Shown here: in pieces, positions 443-26,204 of the stretch
Layout: each line of letters opens with the position of its first letter
Position numbering within the stretch: the stretch's first letter is position 1
Notes under the pieces: generated by a model
What the model was told of the DNA's origin: nothing
The model's database searches: none
What the model saw: only the letters and a program-made list of their open reading frames with translations
Program-made: the position numbers and the translations under genes
Assembly: GCF_004010195.1 (NCBI RefSeq)
Contig: NC_057718.1
Coordinates: forward strand, 73,052,854 to 73,079,437
From: Chiloscyllium plagiosum
Taxonomy: Eukaryota
Reading direction: 5' to 3'
Length of the DNA stretch: 26,584 nt

Positions 443-2630
443 TTGCCAACTCCTGCATTTAGAGTCAAAGGTGCTGGTTGTATTACTGCCTGCGGCTTAC
501 TTACTATTTGGCATGTATGACATGTACGGCAAACATTAACCACATCCTTGTGCATTCCAGGCCAACTTTTGTACCTTAGCCTGAGTTTTCCTTACACCTC
601 TGTGACCTCCTACTGGTAGTTCATGTGCTACCCATAACACTTCCAGTCTGTATGCTACCTGCAACACAAATCGGTTGCATTTCTGCCCATTTCTCCTCTG
701 CATGAACCTGCCGTGGTCTCCATTTTCATCTGGGATTCTATCTTTAAAAGATAATAACCTTCAGGAATGTTCTAATTTCTTTTCTGAGTATGCAACACAC
801 ATCTTTTATGGTCTAGTCTTTCTGTTGCAAGCCTTTAGCCTTTCAGGACTAAACACTTCTGCCTGACCCTCTGCCTGTCCAGGCTTTCCATGCACCATTA
901 CATCAGACAGGGTGTCTGCTAACTGAACCTCAACTCTTTCATCTTTCTCTTTCGTTTTTACTTCATGCTGAGACTTATGATAGTGGGATCTTGTTACTAC
1001 ACAGTCTGGGACAATTCTAGGGTATTTTTCTTTTAACTCAGCTCCCTAGTCTTCCTTTGGCTTCTCCACAAGGAGCATCACTCCCACCTTTGATCCTGCT
1101 AAATTGTTCCCACCAAATTGTATTCCTGGAACGGACACTCTCAATCACTCCCACTGTTACTCCTCCACTCTTGAGTTGGCCCTCCAACCTGACCTTACAT
1201 AGGCAAACACTAAACTTCTCTCATCTATTCCCCAAATTACCACTCTCTCGGGTAATAGGTTAGAAAGAGTGCAATTATGTTCATCTCTTACTATTAGACA
1301 CTGGTTAGATCCTGTATCTCAAAATTATAGCTTCTTTCCATTTTCTTCCAGTTCTCTCTCAGGGAACTTTACCCAGAGGCGAATTCTTTATAGAGATCAG
1401 GCACTAACTCCATACCCAGCCCGTGCCTAGACTGTGCACTCTCATACAGCTCAACTTTTCTTGGGGTTTCCTTTGTTAGCTTTACTAATGCCACTGGTTT
1501 AGTTTCTTTTCCCACAGTGCCTTTCTTTAAACAAAAACCAGCACTTTGATTTTACATGCCCCACTTTCTGGCAGTGAAAACACTTTTTCCCAGTGCCTTT
1601 CTTAAGCCACCGGCACTAATTTTCTGCATCCCATTCCATTACAGTGAAAACAGATGCCTTTCATCTCCTTTCCACCCGATTGGGCTTCTTTGAAATCGGT
1701 GGTGAAAAATTACCAGTGCGCTCTGTTTTGTAGGGTAGGATCTCCCCTTCTCCCCAATTTCTATCCCTCATGGGATGAAATTTTTGCAGGAAGCTAAAAA
1801 CTTGATCTGATGCACCAATGGATATTTATCTGCCATCTCTGCTGCCTTTCTCACTTTTTGAACTTTGCGTTCATCCACATGAATTCTGATCATCTCTGGA
1901 AGTGAGTTTTTAAAACTCCTCCAGCAGAATAATCTCTTGGAGATTGGTCTTATCTTTTTTTTTAAAAAAGGACCACCTCCACCATCTATCAAAATTACTG
2001 TTTAATTCTTTCAAACTCAACAAGTCTGACCTGTCTCCTCCTTTATGTTTATGAACCGTTGTCTATATGCTTCTGGTACCAATTCATAAGCATTCAAAAT
2101 AGCCTGTTTGATGCATTCATAATCTCTCGAAACCTCATCTGACAGTGCTGCAAATACCTCTCTAGCTGTGCCTACCAGCTTAGTCCAAACTAGCATTTCT
2201 CACAAGTCCTCTGACCACTCCATCTGCCTGGCCAATTTTTCAAATGAGACGAAAGACTTCGACATCTTTCTCAAAAGCGTAGCAGTGTTTAAACATATAT
2301 CACTACCTTCTCTCCATTTCCATCCTGTTAACTTGACTTTCCTGACTAAGTTGCAACTTCTGAAGTTCAAATTCTCTCTCCATCTAACTCCATTTTGCTC
2401 AATTGTATTTTATGTTTTCTTTAACAACTCGACTACATTGGTCTATTTGTCTGACACCCTTACAGTGCTTGACTAACTCCCTTACAATTTTAGCTTTCCT
2501 TTTGTCCCTGGTTAAGCCCAAATCAAACCTCTTTACTAATTCTAAAAGTATAGTTTTTTCTGTCCTCCTAAACTTTCTTGGTAAACTTGGTAATCATCTT
2601 CAAATCCTCTTTAGCAATTTTAAGAGCTAT
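443..2630 (-). pseudogene. Disrupted gag-protease-integrase polyprotein of the Gypsy element
   Basis: FEKLARQMEW...KLVGTAREVFAALSDEVSRDYECIKQAILNAYELVPEAYRQRF (about 2055-2245); FKNSLPEMIRIHVDERKVQKVRKAAEMADKY (ORF 1768-1992); CFHCQKVGHVKSKC (1541-1582); DTG (1310-1318); AHELPVGGHRGVRKTQ...WPGMHKDVVNVCRTCHTCQ (about 505-630). Contains stops and frameshifts. Confidence 0.85.
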
Positions 2631-2826
2631 TTCCCTTACTTTTAATTTAACTAACCACAAATAACTACACAATTAAACAAATTGCCTCACCTACTTTTTA
2701 TTTAAATATCTAGGACAGTAACCAACAAGTGCTTAAATCTGCTGGGATCCTTGTACCCCAGATCTGTCCAAATCTCAGGTTGGATATGTCTAAACTTGTC
2801 CAAATCGAAAATCCGAAACCTCAAAC

Positions 2827-3878
2827 TGTTACAACAACACGGCAGTGAACTCTTCTGCTAATTAAACCAAACACACAGAAAAGTTCACCTCATCTCAATC
2901 TGTTCAAATATATGAGTAACAGAGAATTCCCAACTTCCACTATTTAAAGAAAAAATATCGAATTTATTCCTTAACTCAAAGTGAACATTAAACAACAACT
3001 ATTTACAAAACTATGCCTTCTTTCTCCTAACTGCTTATTATCTGCCTCCAACTCTAACTAACTATCTCCTGTTCCAATAACCAAATCATATTACAATTAT
3101 ATCAACTTAATTTTCAAAATCAAGCAGCAGCAGTAGTCTCCGGTATCCTCGTCCTCTTGGCTATAGAACGCCTTGGGTTGTCTTTTGCTGCAAAAATAGG
3201 TTTCATTAGGAAAAAGGTACCTTTGATAGAGAGTGTTTTGAATGGCAGCTCCTCTCAGATGGCAGTTTAGATTAGATTAGATTAGTTACAGTCTGGAAAC
3301 AGGCCCTTCTGCACAACAAATCCACTCCAACCCGCCGAAGCACAACCCACCCAGACCCCATTCTCCTACATTTACCCCTTCACCTCACACTATGGGCAAT
3401 TTAGCTCGGTCAATTCACCTAACCTGCACATTTCTGGACTGTGGGAGGAAACCGGGGTACTTGGAGGAAACCCACACAGACACAGGGAGAATGTGCAACC
3501 TCCACACTGTCAGTTGCCTGAGGCAGGAATTGAACCCGGGTCTCTGCTAATCACTGTGCCACCGTGCCGCTCACTCTCTCTGGCTAACTGTTTTCTTTAT
3601 GCCCCAAATATCGGATCATCTCATTGAGCCAATGTTGTCAAAACATTACATTCAAATTAGATTGGGCTTTAGCATCTTGGGGCATAGTTTAAACTGATTA
3701 ATTAACTTCGAACGGTTGTGAAAACATAGCAAACAAAACTCAAATATTCGTGTCACAACCAAATGTTACATATTTTCAATTTTTCAGTACACTCTGATGA
3801 CTAGTCAATCAATCAAGTCACATGACAGATACCTGTACTTACTCTTAAAAAGGTACAATACACACCAACTTCATAACA
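2827..3878 (-). repeat. 5' LTR of the Gypsy element, interrupted by a SINE
   Basis: Minus strand begins TGTTATGAAG (3878) and ends GTTGTAACA (2827), i.e. TG..CA with 5-bp inverted termini; AATAAA at 2968-2963; lies just upstream of gag. No second LTR in the window, so boundaries are inferred. Confidence 0.65.
3267..3570 (-). mobile_element. HE1-type tRNA-derived V-SINE
   Basis: A box TGGCACAGTGA, B box GGTTCAATTCC, V-domain GCACATTCTCCC...GTGGGTTTCCTCC, CR1-derived tail with (TAATC)n; short deletion between the boxes. Confidence 0.9.
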
Positions 3879-4663: not shown

Positions 4664-4818
4664 AATGCTAGTCGGTCAAGTACAAAACATACATTCTCAC
4701 ACTCCGCTGTGAGGCAAGGCCGTGCCTTGGAATAATTCTGTATAGCCACAGTATATACTTCCAACAAAGGCAGAGGATTATCAGAGATTTTCCACTTCCC
4801 AGCATACTGTACAAGAGT
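4664..4818 (-). CDS. ZNF292: Internal coding exon (exon 2 equivalent) of a ZNF292/RLF-family zinc finger gene
   Basis: Acceptor TTTTAATTTTTCATTACAG and donor GTAAGTA bound 155 bp (phase 0 to phase 2) encoding TLVQYAGKWKISDNPLPLLEVYTVAIQNYSKARPCLTAECENVCFVLDRLA(L). This closely resembles recalled human ZNF292 TLLEYAEKWKTSEDPLPLLEVYTVAIQSYVKARPYLTSECENVALVLERLAL. The paralog RLF is not fully excluded. The exon is absent from the ORF track. Confidence 0.88.
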
Positions 4819-5620: not shown

Positions 5621-5762
5621 TAGGTTAACTTTAACTCACTCACCAGCTTACTATATATTCATTAACACCAGGTTCCTGTTCATTCATTCATTACCCCTTA
5701 TTTACTAATAACGGTTTCATTATTCATAAAACCGTAGTTTTGGAGTATATTTTGACTATCAT

Positions 5763-5945
5763 ACGCTGGTGTTGGACTGGGGTGGATAATTTTTTTAACA
5801 AAATCAAAACACCAGATTATAGTCCAACAGGTTTATTTGGCAGTACTAACTTTTGGAGCACTGCCCCTTCGTCAGACAGCTAGTGAGGCAAGATCATAAA
5901 ACACAATGTATAACATAAGATCATTGTGCCATGCAAACTGAACTA
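5763..5945 (-). mobile_element. Probable Penelope-like element 3' terminal fragment (second family) with decayed hammerhead-like motif
   Basis: Minus strand CTGACGA-A-GGGGC-AGT-GCTCC-AAAA (5875-5851), then AATAAA and a 9-bp inverted repeat tgttggact/agtccaaca (5770-5778, 5821-5829). Family assignment is by architecture and recall. Confidence 0.55.
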
Positions 5946-7355: not shown

Positions 7356-7565
7356 AGAGTCGAAAAGCGTGGCGCAGGAAAAGCCCTGCAGGTCAGGCAG
7401 CATCTGAACAGCAGGAGAATTGATGCTTCAGGAATAAGCCCTTCATCAGGGGGGTGGGAAAAGGAAGAGGAGGAAGGGGGCTGAGAGATAAATAGGAGGT
7501 TGGGGTAAGGTAGCTGGGAAAACAACAGGTTGATGCAGGTGATGGTGATATATGTCAGAGGGAAG
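7356..7565 (-). mobile_element. Penelope-like element 3' fragment with decayed hammerhead motif
   Basis: Homologous to 8801-9030; minus strand CTGATGAAGGGCTTATTCCTGAAGCATC at 7449-7422. Confidence 0.8.
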
Positions 7566-8800
7566 GAATAGAGTCAGAGTCGTACAGCATGGAAACAGAC
7601 CCTTTGGTCTAACCTGTCCATGCCGATCAGATATCCCAACCCAATCTAGTCCCACCTACCAGCACCTGGCCCATATCCCTCGAAACCCTTCCTATTCATA
7701 TACCCATCCAAATGCCTCTTAAATGTTGCAATTGTACCAGCCTCCACCACATCCTCTGGCAGCTCATTCCATACAAGTACCACCCTCTGTATGAAAAAGT
7801 TGCCCCTTAGGTCTCTTATATATCTTTCCCCTCTCACCCTAAACCTATGCCTTCTAGTTCTCGACTCCCCGACCCCAGGGAAAAGACTTTGCCTATTTAC
7901 ACTATCCATGCCCCTCAATTTTGTAAACCCCTATAACATCACCCCTCAGCCTCCGATGCTCCAGGGAAAACAGCCCCAGCCTGTTTAGCCTCTCCCTATA
8001 GCTCGAATCCTCCAACCCTGGCGACATCCTTGTAAATCTGTTCCGAACTCTTTAAAGTTTCACAACATCTTTCCAATAGGAAGACCAGAATTGCATGCAA
8101 TATTCCATCAGTGGCCTAACCAATGTCCTGTATAGCTGCAATATGACCTCCCAACTCCTGTACTCAATACTGTCACAAATAAAAGAAAGCATACCAAACA
8201 CCGTCTTCACTATCCTATCTACCTGTGACTCCATTGTCAAGGAGCTATGAACATGCACTCCAAGGTCTCTTTGTTCAGCAACACTCCCTAGGACCTTACC
8301 ATTAAGTATATAAGCCCTGCTAAGATTTGCTTTCCCAAAATGCAGCACCTTGCATTTATCGTAATTAAACTCCATCTGCCACTTCTCAGCCCATTGGCCC
8401 ATCTGGTCAAGATCCTGTTGTAATCTAAGGTAAACCTCTTCGCTGTCCACTACACCTCCAATTTTGGTGTCATCTGCAAACTTACTAATTGTACCTCTTA
8501 TGTTCGCACCCAAATCATTTATGTAAATGACAAAAAGTAGAGGACGCAGCACCGATCCCTGTGGCACTCCACTGGTCACAGGCCTCCAGTCTGAAAAACA
8601 ACCCTCCACCACAACCATCTAAGATATAACCTTGCTAATCAGTCTCCCATAGGGAACCGTGTCGAAAGTCTTACTGAAGTCTATACAGATCACATCTACC
8701 ATTCTGCCCTCATCAATCCTCTTTGTTACCCCCTCAAAAAACTCAAAAGTTTGAGAGACATGATTTCCCACTTAAAAGCCATGTTGACTATCCCTAATCA

Positions 8801-10990
8801 AGAGTTGAAAAATGTGGTGCTGAAAAAACACAGCAGGCCAGGCAGCATCCGAGGAGCAGGAGAATCGACGTTTCGGGCATAAGCCCTTCTTCAGGAAAGA
8901 GGCTGGTGTGCCAAGCGGGCTGATATAAAAGGTAGGAGGGAGGGAATTTGGAGGAGGGGCGCTGGGAATACGATAGGTGGAAGGAGGTGAGGGTGATAGG
9001 CCAGAGAGGGGGTGGGGGCGGAGAGGTCGGGAAGAAGATTGCAGGTCAAGAGGGTGGTGCTGAATCTGAGGGTTGGGACTGAGATAAGATGGCGGGAGGG
9101 GAAATGAGGAAGCTGGAGAAATCTACATTCATCCACTGTGGTTGGAGGGTTCCTAGGTGGAAGATGAGGTGCGCTTCCTCCAGGTGTTGTGGCCAGGGTC
9201 TGGCGATGGAGGCAGCCAAGGACCTGCAGGTCATTGGCGGAGTGGGAGGGGGAGTTAAAGTGTTCAGTTGGTGCTGGTATCCCAGAGGTTCCCTGAAACG
9301 TTCCGCAAGTAGGTGGCCTGTCTCCCCAATGTAGAGACGACCACATCAGGTGCCGCGGATACAGTAAATGTTGTCTGTGGAGGTGCAGGTGAATTTGCGA
9401 CGGATATAGAAGGATCCATTGGGGTGGAGAGAGAAATATATCCCTGGTGGTGGCGGAAATGACGGAGGATGATATGATGAATCCGGGAGGTTGGTGGGGT
9501 GGAAGGTGAAGACCAGTGGGGTTCTGTCCTGGTGGTGATTGGAGGGGCAGGGTTCAAGGGCAGAGGTGCGGGAAGTGGAGGAGATGTGGTGGAGAGCGTC
9601 GTCGACCATGGAGGGGAAATTGCGGTCTTTGAAGGAGGAGGCAATTTGAGTTGTTTGGTAGTGGAATTGGTCCTCCTGGGAGCAGATGCGGCGGAGGCGG
9701 AGGAATTGGGAATATGGGATGGCGTTTTTACAGGGGGCAGGGTGGGAGGAGGTGTAATCTAGGTAGCTGTGGGAGTTGGTAAGTTTGTATTAAATGTCGG
9801 TGTTGAGTCGGTCGCTCGAGATAGAAATGGAGTGCGGGGTCTAGGAAGGGGAGTGAGGGGTCTAAGATGGTCCAGGTAAATTTGAGGTCGGGGTGGAAAG
9901 TGTTAGTAAAGTGGATGAACTGTTCAACCTCCTCGTGGGAGCACGAGGTAGCGCCAATACAGTCAGTCATCGATGTAGCGGAGGAAAAGGGGGGTGGTGC
10001 CAGTGTAGTTGCGGAAGATGGACTGTTCCACATATCCGACAAAGAGGCAGGCATAACTGCGGCCCAAGGCTACTCCTTTGGTTTGAAGGAAGTGGGAGGA
10101 TTGGAAGGAGAAGTTAAGAGTGAGGACCAGTTCAGTCAGTCAGTCGAAGGAGGGTGTCAGTGGAAGAGTACTGGTTGGGTTGGCGGGAGAGGAAGAAGCG
10201 GAGGGCTTGGAGACCTTCGTGATGGGGGATGGAAGTGTATAGGGACTGGATGTCCGTCGTGAAGAGAAGGCGTTGGAGGCCGGAGAAGCGAAAATCATGG
10301 AGGGAGGTGGAGGGCATGGGTGGTGTCCCGAAAGTAGGTGGAGAGTTCTTGGACTAAGGGGGACAGGACAGTATGCAGAGATGAGTTCGGTGGAGCAGGA
10401 GCAGGCTGAGACAATGGGTCGGCCAGGGCAGTGGGGTTTGTGGATTTTGGGTTGGAGGTAAAAACGGGCGGTGCGGGGTTGTGGGACTATGGAGGTTGGA
10501 GGCAGTGGATGGGAGATCTCCTGAGGTCATGAGGTTATGGATGGTCTGGGAGATGGTTTGGTGGTGTGAGGTGGGGTCATGGTCAAGGGGGCAGTAGGAG
10601 GCAGTGTCCGTGAGTTGGCGTCTAGCTTCAGTGGTGTAAAGATTGGTGCGCCAAACTAGCACTGCACCTCCCTTGTCTGCCGGTTTGATGGTGAGGTGGG
10701 GGTTGGAGCAGAGGGAGTGGAGGGCTGCGTGTTGTGAGGATGAGAGGTTGGAATGGATGAGAGGTCAATGTCGCGGCAGCAGTTGGATATGATGAGATCG
10801 AGGGCGGGCAAGAGGCCAGCACGGGGTGTCCAGGTGGATAGGGGTGGGTTGGAGGCGGGAGAAGGGGGTTGTCAGAGGGTGGGCAAGAGTCCTTTTTGAA
10901 GAAGTAGGCGCGGAGGCGAAGGCAGCAGAAGAAATGCTTGATATCTAGCTGCGTGTCGAACTCTGATTCGGGAGCGTAGGGGGATGAAGG
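8801..10990 (-). mobile_element. Penelope-like retroelement (Neptune-type), RT plus GIY-YIG, frameshifted
   Basis: IKPADKGGAV (about 10660-10690), DIQSLYTSIP, QTKGVALG (about 10062-10086), YIDD (9966-9977), PFLD, IYCI...YIGET (about 9317-9370). Flanked by tatccctaatca (8789-8800) and tatccataatca (10991-11002). Confidence 0.93.
8863..8898 (-). ncRNA. Minimal type I hammerhead ribozyme motif, core intact
   Basis: Minus strand UUUC-CUGAAGA-A-GGGC-UUAU-GCCC-GAAAC-GUC-GAUU: conserved core, 4-bp stem II, palindromic ACGU as helix III, predicted cleavage after 8867. Helix I is only 2 bp and activity is untested. Confidence 0.7.
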
Positions 10991-12119
10991 TATCCATAAT
11001 CAGTCCTTGCCTTTCCAAATGCATGTACATCCAATCCCTCAGGATTCCCTCCATCAACTTGCCCACCACCGACGTCAGGCTCACTGGTCTATAGTTCCCT
11101 GGCTTGTCCTTACCACCCTTCTTAAACAGTGGCACCACATTAGCCAACCTCCAGTCTTCCGGAACCACACCTGTGACTATCGATGATACAAATATCTTAG
11201 CAAGAGGCCCAGCAAATCACCTCAAACTTCCCACAGAGTTCTAGGGTATACCTGATCAGGTCCTGCGGATACCTGATCAGGTCCTGGGGATGTATCCACC
11301 ATTACCCATTTCAAGACATCCAGCACTTTTCTGTATATAAAGAAGTGTTGCTTCCCAATTGCATTACGGATTGGCTTGACTCTAAGATGGCCCTGCGTTC
11401 TAGCCTCCCCAACAAAGAAGAGTTTTTCATTACCAGATCAAATCAGTTCTCATTTTAAAACCTTAATTATACAACTATACCAGGAAATCTCAAGTCATTC
11501 AGCAAAACAGGCTTGGTTTTTTAAACTGCATTCATAAGCTTCCTGCTTATGCTTCACACAGAAATCATTCACTCTACTACATTTAACTCCTGTACATTGC
11601 TCCACCAATGAAGCAATACTTTGCAAGATGTGAAAATATCAATGTTCAGACAAACAGGTAGTAGATAACAGTCTTCCATTATCTCGGGCAATATCCATCT
11701 CCAATAAGGAAAGTGACAACTTTCAGTAACATCACTATTATCAATTTTAAAAATGGAAGAAATATACCAAGTAACCTTGAGATCAGTAATTTTCTCAGTA
11801 GCTGGATAACTGTTAAAATACATAAACAGGGATTGAATAAATTATCACTTGGAAAAGTATAAATTATACGGTCCTCCAGGAATCACTGTTAGTTATAAGC
11901 TGTGCATAATTTCTTTACAATAATTCCACGTTTCCAGATGTTAAAGTCAACAGGAATGGAAAGTTGTGAAGATTGTAAAAGAATTCCAATTGTATACACA
12001 ACAGGGTGAGCAGGACATTGCAGAAAAGATCTTAAAAAAGATTTCTTCCCCCACCCCCTCCAAATATGAAGAGTCATTAAAGTTTGCAATTCATGTATAC
12101 CAATGCTACTTAGGATCCT

Positions 12120-12376
12120 CTTCCCCTTACATTTACCTCAGACTAAGACACCCAACCAACACATCCCTGAACAGTATGGGCAATTTTAACAGGGCCAATT
12201 CACCTAATCTGCACATCTTTGGATTGTGGGAGGAAACCAGAGTACGCAGAGGAAACCCACTCAGACAGGGGGAGAATGTGCAAACTCCACACAGACAGTT
12301 GCCCAAGGTAGGAATCGAACCCAGGTCCTTGACACTGAGGGAACAGAGCTAACCACTGAACCATCGTGCTTGCCCC
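12120..12376 (-). mobile_element. HE1-type V-SINE, older diverged copy
   Basis: A box TGGTTCAGTGG, B box GGTTCGATTCC and V-domain present; tail not recognisable. Confidence 0.85.
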
Positions 12377-12939: not shown

Positions 12940-13585
12940 GGAGCAAATTAAATGGAAAGGAAGATGGTTAAGTAGGACATTTCAAGAGGACGGTGCACAG
13001 TTAGAAGTTTGGATTTGGGGGAGGGGGGGGGGGGGGGGGGGAAAGATGAGAAAACTGGTGAAGTAAAAGCAGATGCCATGTGGTTGGAGGGTCCCAAGGT
13101 GGAAGATGAGGCGTCCTTCCTCCAGGTGTCAGGTGGCTTGGATTTGGCGGCCCAACACTTGTATGTCCTTGGCAGAGTGGAATGGGGTGTTGAAGTGGTC
13201 TGCCACACGGCAGTGGGGTTGCTTGGTACGTGTCCCAGAGATGTTCCCTGAAACAGTACACGGTGGCATCCTGTCTCCTCAATGTAGAGGAGGCCACATT
13301 GAGATCAATGGACACAGTAGAGAGGGGGTTTGGATGTGCAGGAAAATTTCTGCTTGTGTAAGGAACCCGTGGGGCCTTGGATGAAGACAGGGTGGAGGCT
13401 GTGGGAGGTGTGGGCACATGTTTTACACTTCTTGCAGTGGCAAGGGAAGGTGCTGGGAGGGGTGTGTGTGGGGGTGTGTGAGAAAGAGCTTAATAAGAGA
13501 GTCACAGAGGGAATGGTCTCTGTGGAATGCCAACAGAGGGAAATGTATCGCTGGTGGTGGGTTCTGATTGTATGTTTCAGAAAAA
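12940..13585 (-). mobile_element. Penelope-like element (Neptune-type) C-terminal fragment
   Basis: Cys linker STFPCHCKKCKTCAH (ORF 13305-13505), LYCVH...CGLLYIEET endonuclease motif and FREHLWD. Confidence 0.85.
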
Positions 13586-13619
13586 AGAGGGGATTACGAT
13601 CCTTATTGCTGTTGGAGTG

Positions 13620-13872
13620 ATGGGGTGCACAATCGTTCAGTCCAACTCATCCATCTGGACATATTTGCTAGGATTTGGCCCATATGCCTCAACGCTTCCT
13701 ATTCATATACTCATCCAGATGCCTTTTAACATGTTATAATTGTCCCAGCTTCCACCACTTCCTCTGGCAGCTCCATACACACACCACCCTCTGCATGGAA
13801 AAGTTGATCCTTAGGTTCCTTTTAAACTTTTCCCCTCTCACCTTAAACCAATACCCTCGAGTTTTGGACTCA
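13620..13872 (-). mobile_element. CR1 LINE 3' fragment
   Basis: Homologous to 7660-7870 (ccaccacttcctctggcagctc, cccctctcaccttaaac). Confidence 0.85.
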
Positions 13873-14391: not shown

Positions 14392-14702
14392 AGGATTTCA
14401 CCAGTTTCCTAATTTCCCCTCCCACTACCTTATTCCAGTTCCAACCTTCGAGCTCAGCACCACCCTCAGGACTTGTCCCACCGGTCCTTCTTCCTTTCCA
14501 CCTATCCGCTCCACCCGATCACCTTTACCCCCACCTCTATCCACCTATTACACTCTGTTACCTTCCCCCTCCCATTTATCTCGTCACCCCCAAGGCTCCC
14601 AATCTCATTCCTGATGAAGGGCTTTTGCCTGAAACATCGATTTTCCTGCTCCTTTGATGCTGCCTGACCTCCTGTGCTTTTCCAGCACCATCTTCTCAAC
14701 TC
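14392..14702 (+). mobile_element. Penelope-like element 3' fragment inserted in CR1
   Basis: Homologous to 24836-25160; interrupts the CR1 frame between EEIVIAL and the FVSL-like continuation; no TSD seen. Confidence 0.85.
14607..14642 (+). ncRNA. Hammerhead motif with two CpG-type changes
   Basis: AUUC-CUGAUGA-A-GGGC-UUUU-GCCU-GAAAC-AUC-GAUU. Confidence 0.5.
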
Positions 14703-20596: not shown

Positions 20597-21331
20597 TGAG
20601 AATGTGTCAGGGAAAGAGTGAAGTTCTGAATTTTGTGAAACAAGAGGCTCAGATGAGCATGACTCAGATCAGATACGAACTTGCAGTTAACAATGGGGTG
20701 CTGGAGACAAGGGCAATGGGTTAACAAGGTGGAAAAACAGTCATGTACAGCCATTTAACAATATTAGATTAGATTAGATTACATTACATTACAGCGTGGA
20801 AACAGACCCTTCGGCCCAACAAGTCCACACCGACCCGCCAAAGCGCAACCCACCCATAACCCTAACCTAACACTACGGGCAATTTAGCATGACCAATTCA
20901 CCTGACCTGCACATCTTTGGACTGTGGGAGGAAACCGGAGCACCCGGAGGAAACCCACGCAGACCACGGGGAGAATGTGCAAACTCCACATAGTCAGTCA
21001 GTCACCTGAGGCGGGAATTGAACCCGGGTCTCTGGCACTGCGAGGCAGCAGTGCTAACCACTGTGCCACCATGCCGCCTATCTGAATGGAAGTATTCAGA
21101 GGAAAAGGTCAATTTAACAAGGTGAAAATTAATCATGTCAAGCCAGTTAAGGTTGAGAACATTCATTGTGTGACAGCAGACCAGGAACCCATGTCCCTGT
21201 GCACATGGGCAATCGTTCGCTCGCCCTCCAGGGCCCAGAATAAAAGATGAGGAAGATAAAACTATATTGTGTCTGAGTGTTTTGATTCAACTGGGAGTTT
21301 GGGGGGCGGGGGGGGGGGAAGCAGGACGATA
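20597..21331 (+). repeat. ERV 3' LTR, interrupted by a SINE
   Basis: Starts TGAGAATGT; aligns to the 5' LTR (about 16 mismatches in a block of about 118 nt, counted by hand); AATAAA 21239-21244. Confidence 0.85.
20764..21078 (-). mobile_element. HE1-type V-SINE, full length
   Basis: A box TGGCACAGTGG, B box GGTTCAATTCC, V-domain, CR1-like tail and (TAATG/TAATC)n. Confidence 0.93.
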
Positions 21332-23252: not shown

Positions 23253-25197
23253 GGGAGCTGAAAATGTTGCTGGAAAAGCGCAGGTCAGGCAGCATCGACG
23301 ATTCGGGCATGAGCCCTTCTTCAGGAATGAGGAAAGGGTGCCAAGCAGGCCAAGATAAAAAAAGATAGGGAGGAGGGACTTGAGGGAGGGGCGTTGGAAA
23401 CACGACAGGTGGAAGGAGGTTAAGGTGAGGGTGATAAGGTGAGGGTGATAGGCCTGGGAATGGGGGGGGGGGGGGAAGAGGGGAAAATGAGGAAACTGGA
23501 GAAATCGGAGTTCATCCCTTGTGGTCGGAGGATTCCTAGGCAGAAGATGAGGCGCTCTTCCTCCAGCCGTGGTGTTGCAATGGAGGAGTCCAAGGAGCTG
23601 CATGTTCTTTGGTGGAGTGGGAGGGGGAGTTGAAGTGTTGAGCCACGGGGTGGTTGGGTTGGTTGGTGCGGGTGTCTCAGAGGTGTTCTCGGAAAACATT
23701 CCGCAAGTAGGCGGCCTGTCTCCCCAATACAGAGGGGGCCAAATCGGGTGCAGTAAACGGGTGTGTGTGGAGGTGCAGGTGAATTTGTGGCAGTATGGAA
23801 GGATCCCTTGGGGCCAGGNNNNNNNNNNNNNNNNNNNNNNNNNNNNNNNNNNNNNNNNNNNNNNNNNNNNNNNNNNNNNNNNNNNNNNNNNNNNGTAGGT
23901 GAGGACCAGTGGGGTTCTGTCCTGGTGGCGATTGGAGGGGCGGGGCTCAAGGGCGGAGGAGCAGGAAGAGGAGGAGATGCGGTGGAGGGCATCGTTGGCC
24001 ACGTCTGGGGGGAAATTGCGGTCGTTGAAGGAGGCCATCTGGGCTGTTCCCATATTCCCAATTCCTTCGTCTCCGCCGCATCTGCTCCCAGGAGGACCAG
24101 TTCCAATACCGAACAACCCAGATGGCCTCCTTCAACGACCGCAATTTCCCCCCAGACGTGGTCGACGATGCTCTCCACCGCATCTCCTTCATTTCCCGCT
24201 CCCCGCCCTTGAGCCCCGCCCCTCCAAATTTCCACCGGGACAGAACCCCACTGGTCCTCACCTACCATCCCACCAACCTCCATATACATCGTATCATCCG
24301 TCTGCATTTCCGCCACCTCCAAACGGACCCCACCACCAGGGATATATTTCCTGCACCTCCCCTATCAGTGTTCCGAAAAGACCACTCCCTCCGTGACTCC
24401 CTCGTCAAGTCCACACCCCCATCAACCCAACCTCCACTCCCGGCACCTTACCCTGCAACCGCAAGAAATGCACAACTTGCGGCCACACCGCCCCCCCTTC
24501 CTTCCCTCCAAGGCCCCAAGGGATTCTTCCATATCTGCCACAAATTCACCTGCACCTCCACACGCATTTATTGTATCTGCTGCACCCGATGTGGCCCCCT
24601 TTATATTGGGGAGAGAGGACGCCTACTTGCAGAACATTTCAGAGAACACCTCTGGGACACCCGCAACAACCAACCCAACCACCCTGTAGATCAACACTTC
24701 AACTCCCCCTCCCACTCCACCAAAGGACATGCAGCTGCTTGGACTCCTCCATTGCCAGACCATAGCAACACGACGACTGGAGGAAGAGCGCCTCATCTTC
24801 CGCCTAGGAATCCTCCAACCACAAGGGATGAACTCAGATTTCTCCAGTTTCCTAATTTCTCCACCCCCCACCTTGTCTCAGTCCCAACTCTCGAACTCAG
24901 CACCACCTTCCTAACCTGCATTCTTCCTGACCTCTCTACCCCCACTCCGGCCTATCACTCTCACCTTATCACCCTCACCTTAACCTCCTTCCACCTATCG
25001 CATTTCCAATGCCCCTCCCCCAAGTCCCTCCTCCCTACCTTTTATCTTAGCCTGCTTGGTACACTTTCTTCATTCCTGAAGAAGGGCTCATGCCCAAAAT
25101 ATCGATTCTCCTGTTCCTTGGATGCTGCCTGACCTGCTGCGCTTTTCCAGCAACACACTTTCAGCTGATCTCCAGCATCTGCAGTCCTCACTGTCTC
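23253..25197. mobile_element. Palindromic (head-to-head) Neptune-type PLE insertion: minus arm 23256-24048, plus copy 24049-25197
   Basis: The plus copy encodes PYSQFLRLRRICS, GTLPCNRKKCTTCGH and IYCICCTRCGPLYIGE. The minus arm is an inverted copy of 24111-25166. The unit is flanked by CTGAATGAAAT at 23242-23252 and 25198-25208. Confidence 0.9.
23819..23894. other. Assembly gap (76 N)
   Basis: Run of N inside the left palindrome arm. Confidence 0.99.
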
Positions 25198-25579: not shown

Positions 25580-25900
25580 TTAGATTAGATTACATTAGAT
25601 TAGATTACATTACAGTGTGGAAACAGGCCCTTCGGCCGAACAAGTCCACACCGACCCGCCGAAGCGCAACCCACCCCTACATTTACCCATCAACCTAACA
25701 CTACGGGCAATTTAGCATGGCCAATTCACCTAACCTGCACATCTTTGGACTGTGGGAGGAAACCGGAGCACCCGGAGGAAACCCACGCAGACATGGGGAG
25801 AATGTGCAAACTCCACACAGTCAGTCGCCTGAGGCGGGAATTGAACCCGGGTCTCTGGCGCTGTGAGGCAGCAGTGCTAACCACTGTGCCACCGTGTCGC
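25580..25900 (-). mobile_element. HE1-type V-SINE, full length
   Basis: Same A/B boxes, V-domain and tail as 20764-21078. Confidence 0.93.
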
Positions 25901-26204
25901 ACAGTGTGCCCTTACAACCCTTTTAGAAAATAAAGAGTACAGCAAGGACAACATAACCTTGTTAAAAGGTGCAGCACAGTCACACCTCCCCACTTAAAAA
26001 TATATAATCAATATCCAGAGATGGCTTCATTTGAAAACCCACTTAATCTTACACAACACACATTCATTACATTGACAATAACCATGCAAACATGCTAGTG
26101 CATTCTACGTCAGTTTACTCCCATTACTGAAGGCCTCGGATTTCACATCTGAGTCTCGACAATGCATGGCAATCACGTTTTCCTCTCCTGTCACATGCAT
26201 TTCC

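Follow-up and report, generated by a model that had tools for sequence, protein, structure and literature searches.

A minimal hammerhead of a dead Penelope-like element in a probable ZNF292 intron of Chiloscyllium plagiosum, probably an inert transposon passenger

We analyzed a stretch of 26,584 nucleotides of Chiloscyllium plagiosum DNA (hereafter, the window) and identified on its minus strand what is very likely a hammerhead relic of a Penelope-like element (PLE) in an intron of ZNF292, carried at this locus as a transposon passenger and probably inert. Judged from its sequence, the motif is a PLE minimal hammerhead (min-HHR) by every feature tested, with its catalysis being a prediction. 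The min-HHR descriptor gave a single match in the real window, at this motif, and none in 1,000 dinucleotide shuffles, both strands being searched. The initial annotation, in which the motif had been described as having an intact core, an extra A after A9, the palindrome ACGU and a weak helix I of 2 bp, was thus found to be accurate. The coordinates of the motif, its source element, the host exon and the related copies are summarized in Table 1.

Table 1. Features of the window discussed in this study.
Feature	Position	Strand	Remarks
Minimal type I hammerhead (min-HHR) of the PLE	8863-8898	minus	predicted cut at 8867/8866; agrees with the Fig. S3 consensus (Cervera 2014)
Core C3-A9 (CUGAAGA)	8888-8894	minus	extra A next, at 8887
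Helix II, 4 bp, UUAU loop, G10.1-C11.1 retained	8875-8886	minus	
Palindrome ACGU (A15.1-U16.1)	8868-8871	minus	helix III possible only between two copies
Helix I, 5' strand	8895-8898	minus	pairing confined to 8895-8896 (with 8866-8865)
Dead 5'-truncated PLE copy (RT, HTH linker and GIY-YIG endonuclease remnants)	8801-10990	minus	frameshifts, stops, 155-nt deletion at 9426
Conserved 3' tail beyond the cut site	8801-8866	minus	element end at 8801
Target-site duplication, 5' copy	10991-11002	minus	12 bp with 1 mismatch
Target-site duplication, 3' copy	8789-8800	minus	
Interrupted LINE RT, 3' part	8052-8788	minus	Pfam RVT_1 at 8055-8615; 5' part at about 11003-11216
ZNF292 coding exon 2, 155 nt, AG/GT ends	4664-4818	minus	motif 4.0 kb upstream
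Closest family copy, in sense, 1445 nt downstream	7356-7550	minus	position 7449; A15.1, G16.2, C11.1, G11.4 and G1.1 changed
Family copy, sense, 14.4 kb upstream	23286-23428	minus	position 23324; A15.1 changed; deletion beyond the cut site
Family copy, antisense to host	14417-14702	plus	position 14611; G16.2 and C11.1 changed
Family copy ending the longer plus-strand PLE, antisense	24861-25190	plus	position 25076; G12, C15.2 and G16.2 changed

On the minus strand, the core runs from C3 (8894) through U4, G5, A6, A7 and G8 to A9 (8888) and the extra A (8887), and its 3' half consists of G12 (8874), A13, A14 (8872), A15.1 (8871), C15.2, G16.2, U16.1 (8868) and C17 (8867). Helix II is formed by 8886-8883 with 8878-8875 (GC, GC, GC and CG), where G8886-C8875 represents G10.1-C11.1, and the 2 bp of helix I (C8895-G8866 and U8896-A8865) are followed by two U.U mismatches. 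The motif therefore has the CUGANGA...GAAA...UH core with a single nucleotide separating position 9 from 10.1 and the G10.1-C11.1 pair of the class, together with palindromic 15.2-16.2 positions with which a monomer forms no stable helix III and a location at the PLE terminus in the sense of the open reading frame (ORF). The Infernal search proposed in the initial annotation, when run, gave no match to any Rfam hammerhead model at E values up to 10 in the whole window or in 8780-8980, which is as expected for a motif that lacks a helix III loop.

The min-HHR was defined in 2014 (Cervera and De la Pena, PMC4209133), in a paper that gives as class features the palindrome, G10.1-C11.1 and the extra nucleotide; the earlier assignment of the motif to the dimer-type PLE hammerheads is in keeping with these. 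Like our motif, the published PLE min-HHRs are of type I with a CUGANGA core, have a nucleotide added ahead of G10.1, lack loop 3 and are located at the 3' terminus of 5'-truncated PLEs, and those of Acropora Neptune and Nematostella have, in addition, a similar 4-bp helix II and CG palindrome (PMC4209133). Thousands of copies were reported there in coelacanth and Xenopus, whereas cartilaginous fish are absent from the 56 motifs of its Fig. S3. The 2-bp helix I of the focal motif is shorter than the 3-bp consensus, although 2 bp are also found in 5 of those 56 motifs.

The source element was characterized by homologue searches. One frame piece of the PLE gave 50 relatives among 132 candidates, with the best being from Chiloscyllium punctatum, and the domains of the relatives were PF00078, PF26215 and PF01541. 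A tblastn search with the relatives gave matches at 11024-9068 in several frames and with stops, and these pieces lie 5' of the motif, confirming the earlier placing of the hammerhead just 3' of the PLE ORF on the same strand. The order of a reverse transcriptase (RT) followed by a C-terminal GIY-YIG endonuclease was also found in the focal copy (tblastn against relatives P0030 and P0034). When 10 PLE and LINE frame pieces were submitted to Pfam, only one was matched (RVT_1, in the LINE), the PLE identity coming from the homologue searches. Both flanks of the PLE carry on a single LINE reverse-transcriptase frame, which we take to be of the 'CR1' type. Of the 903 sites that could be aligned between the focal copy and the longer plus-strand copy (24047-25165), 148 differ, and the deletion at 9426 has deprived the focal copy of its CX2-5CxxC linker, which is present in the sister copy (24400-24762) and in relatives P0003, P0030, P0031 and P0034. 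This linker is a mark of the Neptune and Nematis clades (PMC8557442). The source element was probably a Neptune/Nematis-type PLE with a GIY-YIG endonuclease (EN+). The focal element is thus a dead copy, truncated at the 5' side and with just its 3' hammerhead left, which is the most frequent state in the list of Cervera and De la Pena (Table S1; PMC4209133).

Further PLE remnants were observed in the window. A plus copy (24111-25190) and a minus copy (24049-23286) stand head to head at 23286-25190. They overlap in inverted orientation over 155 nt, the assembly has a gap of 76 nt at 23819-23894, and the plus copy has a tail that exceeds that of the focal copy by about 25 nt and resembles the optional PLE tail. 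A decayed fragment at 12950-13650 (minus) has the linker zinc finger and is devoid of the 3' end and the hammerhead. A second hammerhead family, with another helix II, an AGCU-type palindrome and decayed G12 and 16.2 positions, was seen at 5760-5883 (minus), in the sense of ZNF292.

With regard to the host gene, the exon at 4818-4664 encodes 51 residues that are all identical to C. plagiosum ZNF292, and 48-50 of the 51 are identical in eight other cartilaginous fishes; since Pfam gave no match to this exon, its identity comes from the homologue searches. The sense orientation of the motif to the host gene, as noted in the initial annotation, holds for this exon, which is on the minus strand as well. 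A part upstream of exon 2 is present in eight of nine cartilaginous-fish ZNF292 proteins (43 residues in seven and 70 in one), and the search of the window for this upstream coding part, a first exon of 43 residues in shark, found no match (best tblastn E value of about 0.27-0.28; 9-10 of 11 proteins having the upstream part). One Heterodontus ZNF292 isoform begins just ahead of exon 2. The CpG-rich stretches of the window are all PLE copies, and there is no CpG island elsewhere. Thus, the motif most likely sits in sense orientation in the long intron 1 of ZNF292, where the host exon and strand are observed and the position in intron 1 is what we infer from the absence of the first coding exon from the window. 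Other repeats in the window include decayed coding sequence similar to that of LTR retrotransposons at 460-3260 (minus), in which gag zinc knuckles and protease- and integrase-like pieces were recognized by eye, and four copies of a SINE-like repeat with TTAGA-type microsatellite ends (3260-3570, 12150-12375, 20763-21080 and 25584-25903), presumably 'HE1'.

Among the five copies of the family in the window, three are in sense and two in antisense orientation to ZNF292, and the sense orientation of the focal copy is therefore not special. None of the four other copies has an intact core, so that there is no cis partner in the window. At 17 key core sites, the four sister copies have nine changes, seven of which are at CpG positions (C11.1, G12, C15.2 and G16.2) and two at A15.1, and the frequencies of differences in the core and the tail were comparable (9/85 versus 24/266; Fisher p 0.67). 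By this pattern of changes, the sister copies are decaying neutrally and mostly by CpG decay. Changes on both sides of a pair, as in compensation, were found in none of seven pairs, a count based on five decayed genomic copies only. The focal copy retains all three core CpGs, and only 10 of the 25 CpGs of a sister copy are kept in it. The rough chance of keeping the three is 0.06 per copy, a value weakened by the choice of the best copy, and the chance that one or more of five cores would be intact is about 0.45-0.85 at a uniform divergence of 6.5-12%. This CpG retention is a small point against pure neutrality and may reflect mild constraint on the focal copy. Furthermore, likeness in the 10 pairs of copies was 0.69-0.89 for the hammerhead and tail versus 0.55-0.86 for the 90 nt upstream, and the greater likeness of this module between subfamilies points to its constraint in active elements and not in the copies. 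A pattern scan for further family copies found none in viral contigs, and the single metagenome-contig match lacked helix II, lay in DNA of bacterial appearance and was rejected as fortuitous.

To evaluate the ability of the motif to fold, we calculated pairing probabilities and energies with an energy model that omits core tertiary contacts and proteins. In the five contexts used, which ranged from 44 to about 630 nt, the pairing probability of helix II was 0.67-1.0; that of helix I was 0.002-0.019 in the monomer, and no extended or alternative helix I was found close to the junction (10-nt flanks, +0.2 kcal/mol). For two focal copies, the energy of the double-hammerhead fold was -13.3 kcal/mol, in comparison with -19.9 kcal/mol for two free monomers and -26.7 kcal/mol for the best dimer, which is non-catalytic. 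The active dimer thus costs 6.6 kcal/mol over two monomer ensembles and 13.4 kcal/mol over the best non-catalytic dimer. The intermolecular pairs available to a dimer are 4+2+2 only, and a local hairpin can cover G5-A9. The penalty for a heterodimer of the focal motif with neighboring copies was +21.0 and +8.9 kcal/mol, and a cis dimer with these copies was ruled out, as neither has an intact enzyme half.

Four sequencing runs were mapped to 8640-9240 at 80% likeness, and the signal represents the family and not the locus. The best-matching DNA runs share 0.33-0.36 of words, and there was no RNA run among those listed. The RNA run was a poly(A) single-cell library, of which about 2 in 100 reads were sampled, with a related label and a species that may differ from C. 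plagiosum. Only 14 of 3039 RNA reads were 99% alike, so that the run is no test of the focal locus, and 97% continued into unlike sequence. At position 8898, the family majority letter was present in 417 of 460 RNA reads and accounted for 97-99% of contig depth in three runs; because the focal copy differs there, it has lost an A-U pair at position four of helix I. The differences listed include more than 25 further places in 8806-9240 where the focal copy departs from the family majority, and none of the 40 listed of 229 is within 8839-8897. No contig bridging the insertion junction at 8800 was found among the pieces listed in two DNA runs.

The RNA depth in three bins around the cut site was 2018, 2254 and 1772, and reads at 8850-8870 were present in both orientations (1282 and 972). 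The family is thus abundant in RNA from both strands, which indicates that partners in trans exist. A pile-up of RNA read ends at the cut site was not seen, this being a weak test with family-level reads from a poly(A) single-cell library. The RNA read depth over 8808-8897 exceeded that of the element body 20- to 40-fold, which may reflect short solo copies in large number or a module common to many subfamilies; a short solo repeat as the source of this excess and of the loose ends at 8897 is an unproven reading, as none of the five copies in the window is solo and divergent upstream subfamilies mimic it. In a few contigs, the 5' end of the hammerhead (8897) was joined to an inverted piece starting at 8853-8867, near the cut site. 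These inversions, which would lengthen helix I, reached a depth of up to 274 versus millions and could be explained by microhomology or by the use of cleaved RNA.

As for the mechanism, the hammerhead of the 3' pseudo-LTR would have been copied in together with the 5'-truncated PLE, landing in an older LINE inside intron 1 of ZNF292. In an active element, two copies would pair through ACGU, and each would cleave the other after GUC with its own core and helix II, in a reaction that would be slow and probably aided by the element protein. At the present locus, the motif would be transcribed with the host pre-mRNA and helix II would fold, with helices I and III needing a partner; as these would be unformed without one, the motif is probably uncut or cut too rarely to matter. 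The intact core would be explained by this copy having decayed least among several. We infer the dimer mechanism from published papers, and the inactivity in vivo is likewise our interpretation. The suggestion in the initial annotation that the host intron holds a self-cleavage site is not supported in the sense of a site that is likely cut, considering that none of the four other copies is an intact cis partner, that the dimer fold is disfavored, that published min-HHR monomers are uncleaved and dimers cleave at a low level (PMC4209133) and that the anole PLE hammerhead needs the element protein (Frangieh 2024; PMC11167929). Splicing is also stated to survive a slow intronic hammerhead (PMC2995048, citing Dye 2006 and Fong 2009).

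A different outcome, in which nascent ZNF292 RNA is cleaved in trans at a low rate with an intact family copy or PLE protein and the mRNA is unaffected because the tethered exons are spliced, is unlikely. The core, helix II and palindrome are all intact, family RNA is plentiful in both orientations, min-HHR dimers and trimers cleave weakly (PMC4209133), and the PLE protein activates the anole hammerhead (PMC11167929). However, the few intermolecular pairs with their cost of 6.6 kcal/mol, the hairpin over G5-A9, the pair lost at 8898 and the lack of a read-end pile-up, weak as the latter test is, argue against it. It is highly improbable that the host has retained the motif to adjust the output of ZNF292 by regulated cleavage, in the way of the intronic hammerheads conserved in amniotes. 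The sense location in a long first intron and the retention of all three CpGs would fit such use, and domesticated intronic hammerheads do exist in amniotes (PMC6155905). Nevertheless, the motif is still within a recognizable dead element with its target duplication, is devoid of the long helix I and the helix III of the amniote ribozymes, has a helix I that is weakened rather than strengthened and shows no compensatory change among the five decayed copies compared, and its sister copies decay neutrally. The idea that the motif is a chance match, or that it lies outside the host transcript with the gene starting between 4819 and 8860, has a negligible likelihood; the lack of an Rfam match, the Heterodontus isoform and the absence of exon 1 from the window would accord with it, but the shuffles gave no match, four homologous copies are present, 9 of 11 ZNF292 proteins compared, human-type N-termini aside, have an upstream coding exon that was not found in the window and no CpG island occurs outside the PLE copies.

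The motif can also be compared with other hammerheads. The Poseidon hammerhead of Anolis is similarly located in a pseudo-LTR (pLTR) with a conserved tail next to it, where genomic copies end, and no pile-up of RNA-seq ends at the cut site was seen in either case; it is dispensable for insertion in vitro (Frangieh 2024; PMC11167929). The Poseidon clade differs in having no linker zinc finger, unlike the sister copy of the focal family, and in that the ORF there begins within stem II and cleavage in the presence of protein has been demonstrated, whereas that of the focal motif is a prediction (PMC11167929). The amniote intronic hammerheads in RECK, CTCL and DTNB are likewise of type I and on the sense strand of introns, but they are conserved across orders with tertiary contacts, whereas the focal motif is one decaying minimal transposon copy (PMC6155905); the full helix I with tertiary contacts and the monomer helix III of that type were not found in the focal motif, which has a helix I of 2 bp and no loop 3. 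Non-LTR retrozymes also carry a type I hammerhead of PLE origin and occur in one chondrichthyan, and 42-44% of Xenopus retrozyme copies overlap introns (bioRxiv 10.64898/2026.07.22.740005). They are tandem non-coding repeats with at least two ribozymes, whereas the focal motif is a single one on the relic of a coding element; neither tandem units nor two or more complete ribozymes were found at this locus, where the nearest copy, 1445 nt away, is broken. Outside subscription journals and bioRxiv supplements, a literature search revealed no report of a PLE hammerhead from sharks or of retrotransposon ribozymes lying in sense in the introns of host pre-mRNA, and the chondrichthyan tables of the retrozyme preprint could bear on this.

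This locus adds an example of the bamboo-shark type to the class described in 2014, in which every one of its features had already been described (Cervera and De la Pena 2014). Because of its weakened helix I and the lack of a cis partner, the ZNF292 locus is poorly suited to testing host cleavage, for which an intact tandem element would be better. There is a slight chance, well below that of low-rate cleavage in trans at this locus, that core-intact sense copies are latent cut sites in pre-mRNA, at which the supply of element protein or RNA, such as in the germ line or under stress, would lead to pairing in trans via ACGU and to cutting of the intron; if true, transposon activity would be coupled to host transcript breakage. 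If such copies do cut host pre-mRNA in vivo, this would be the first PLE min-HHR activity in vivo and would represent a route by which a transposon enters host RNA processing.
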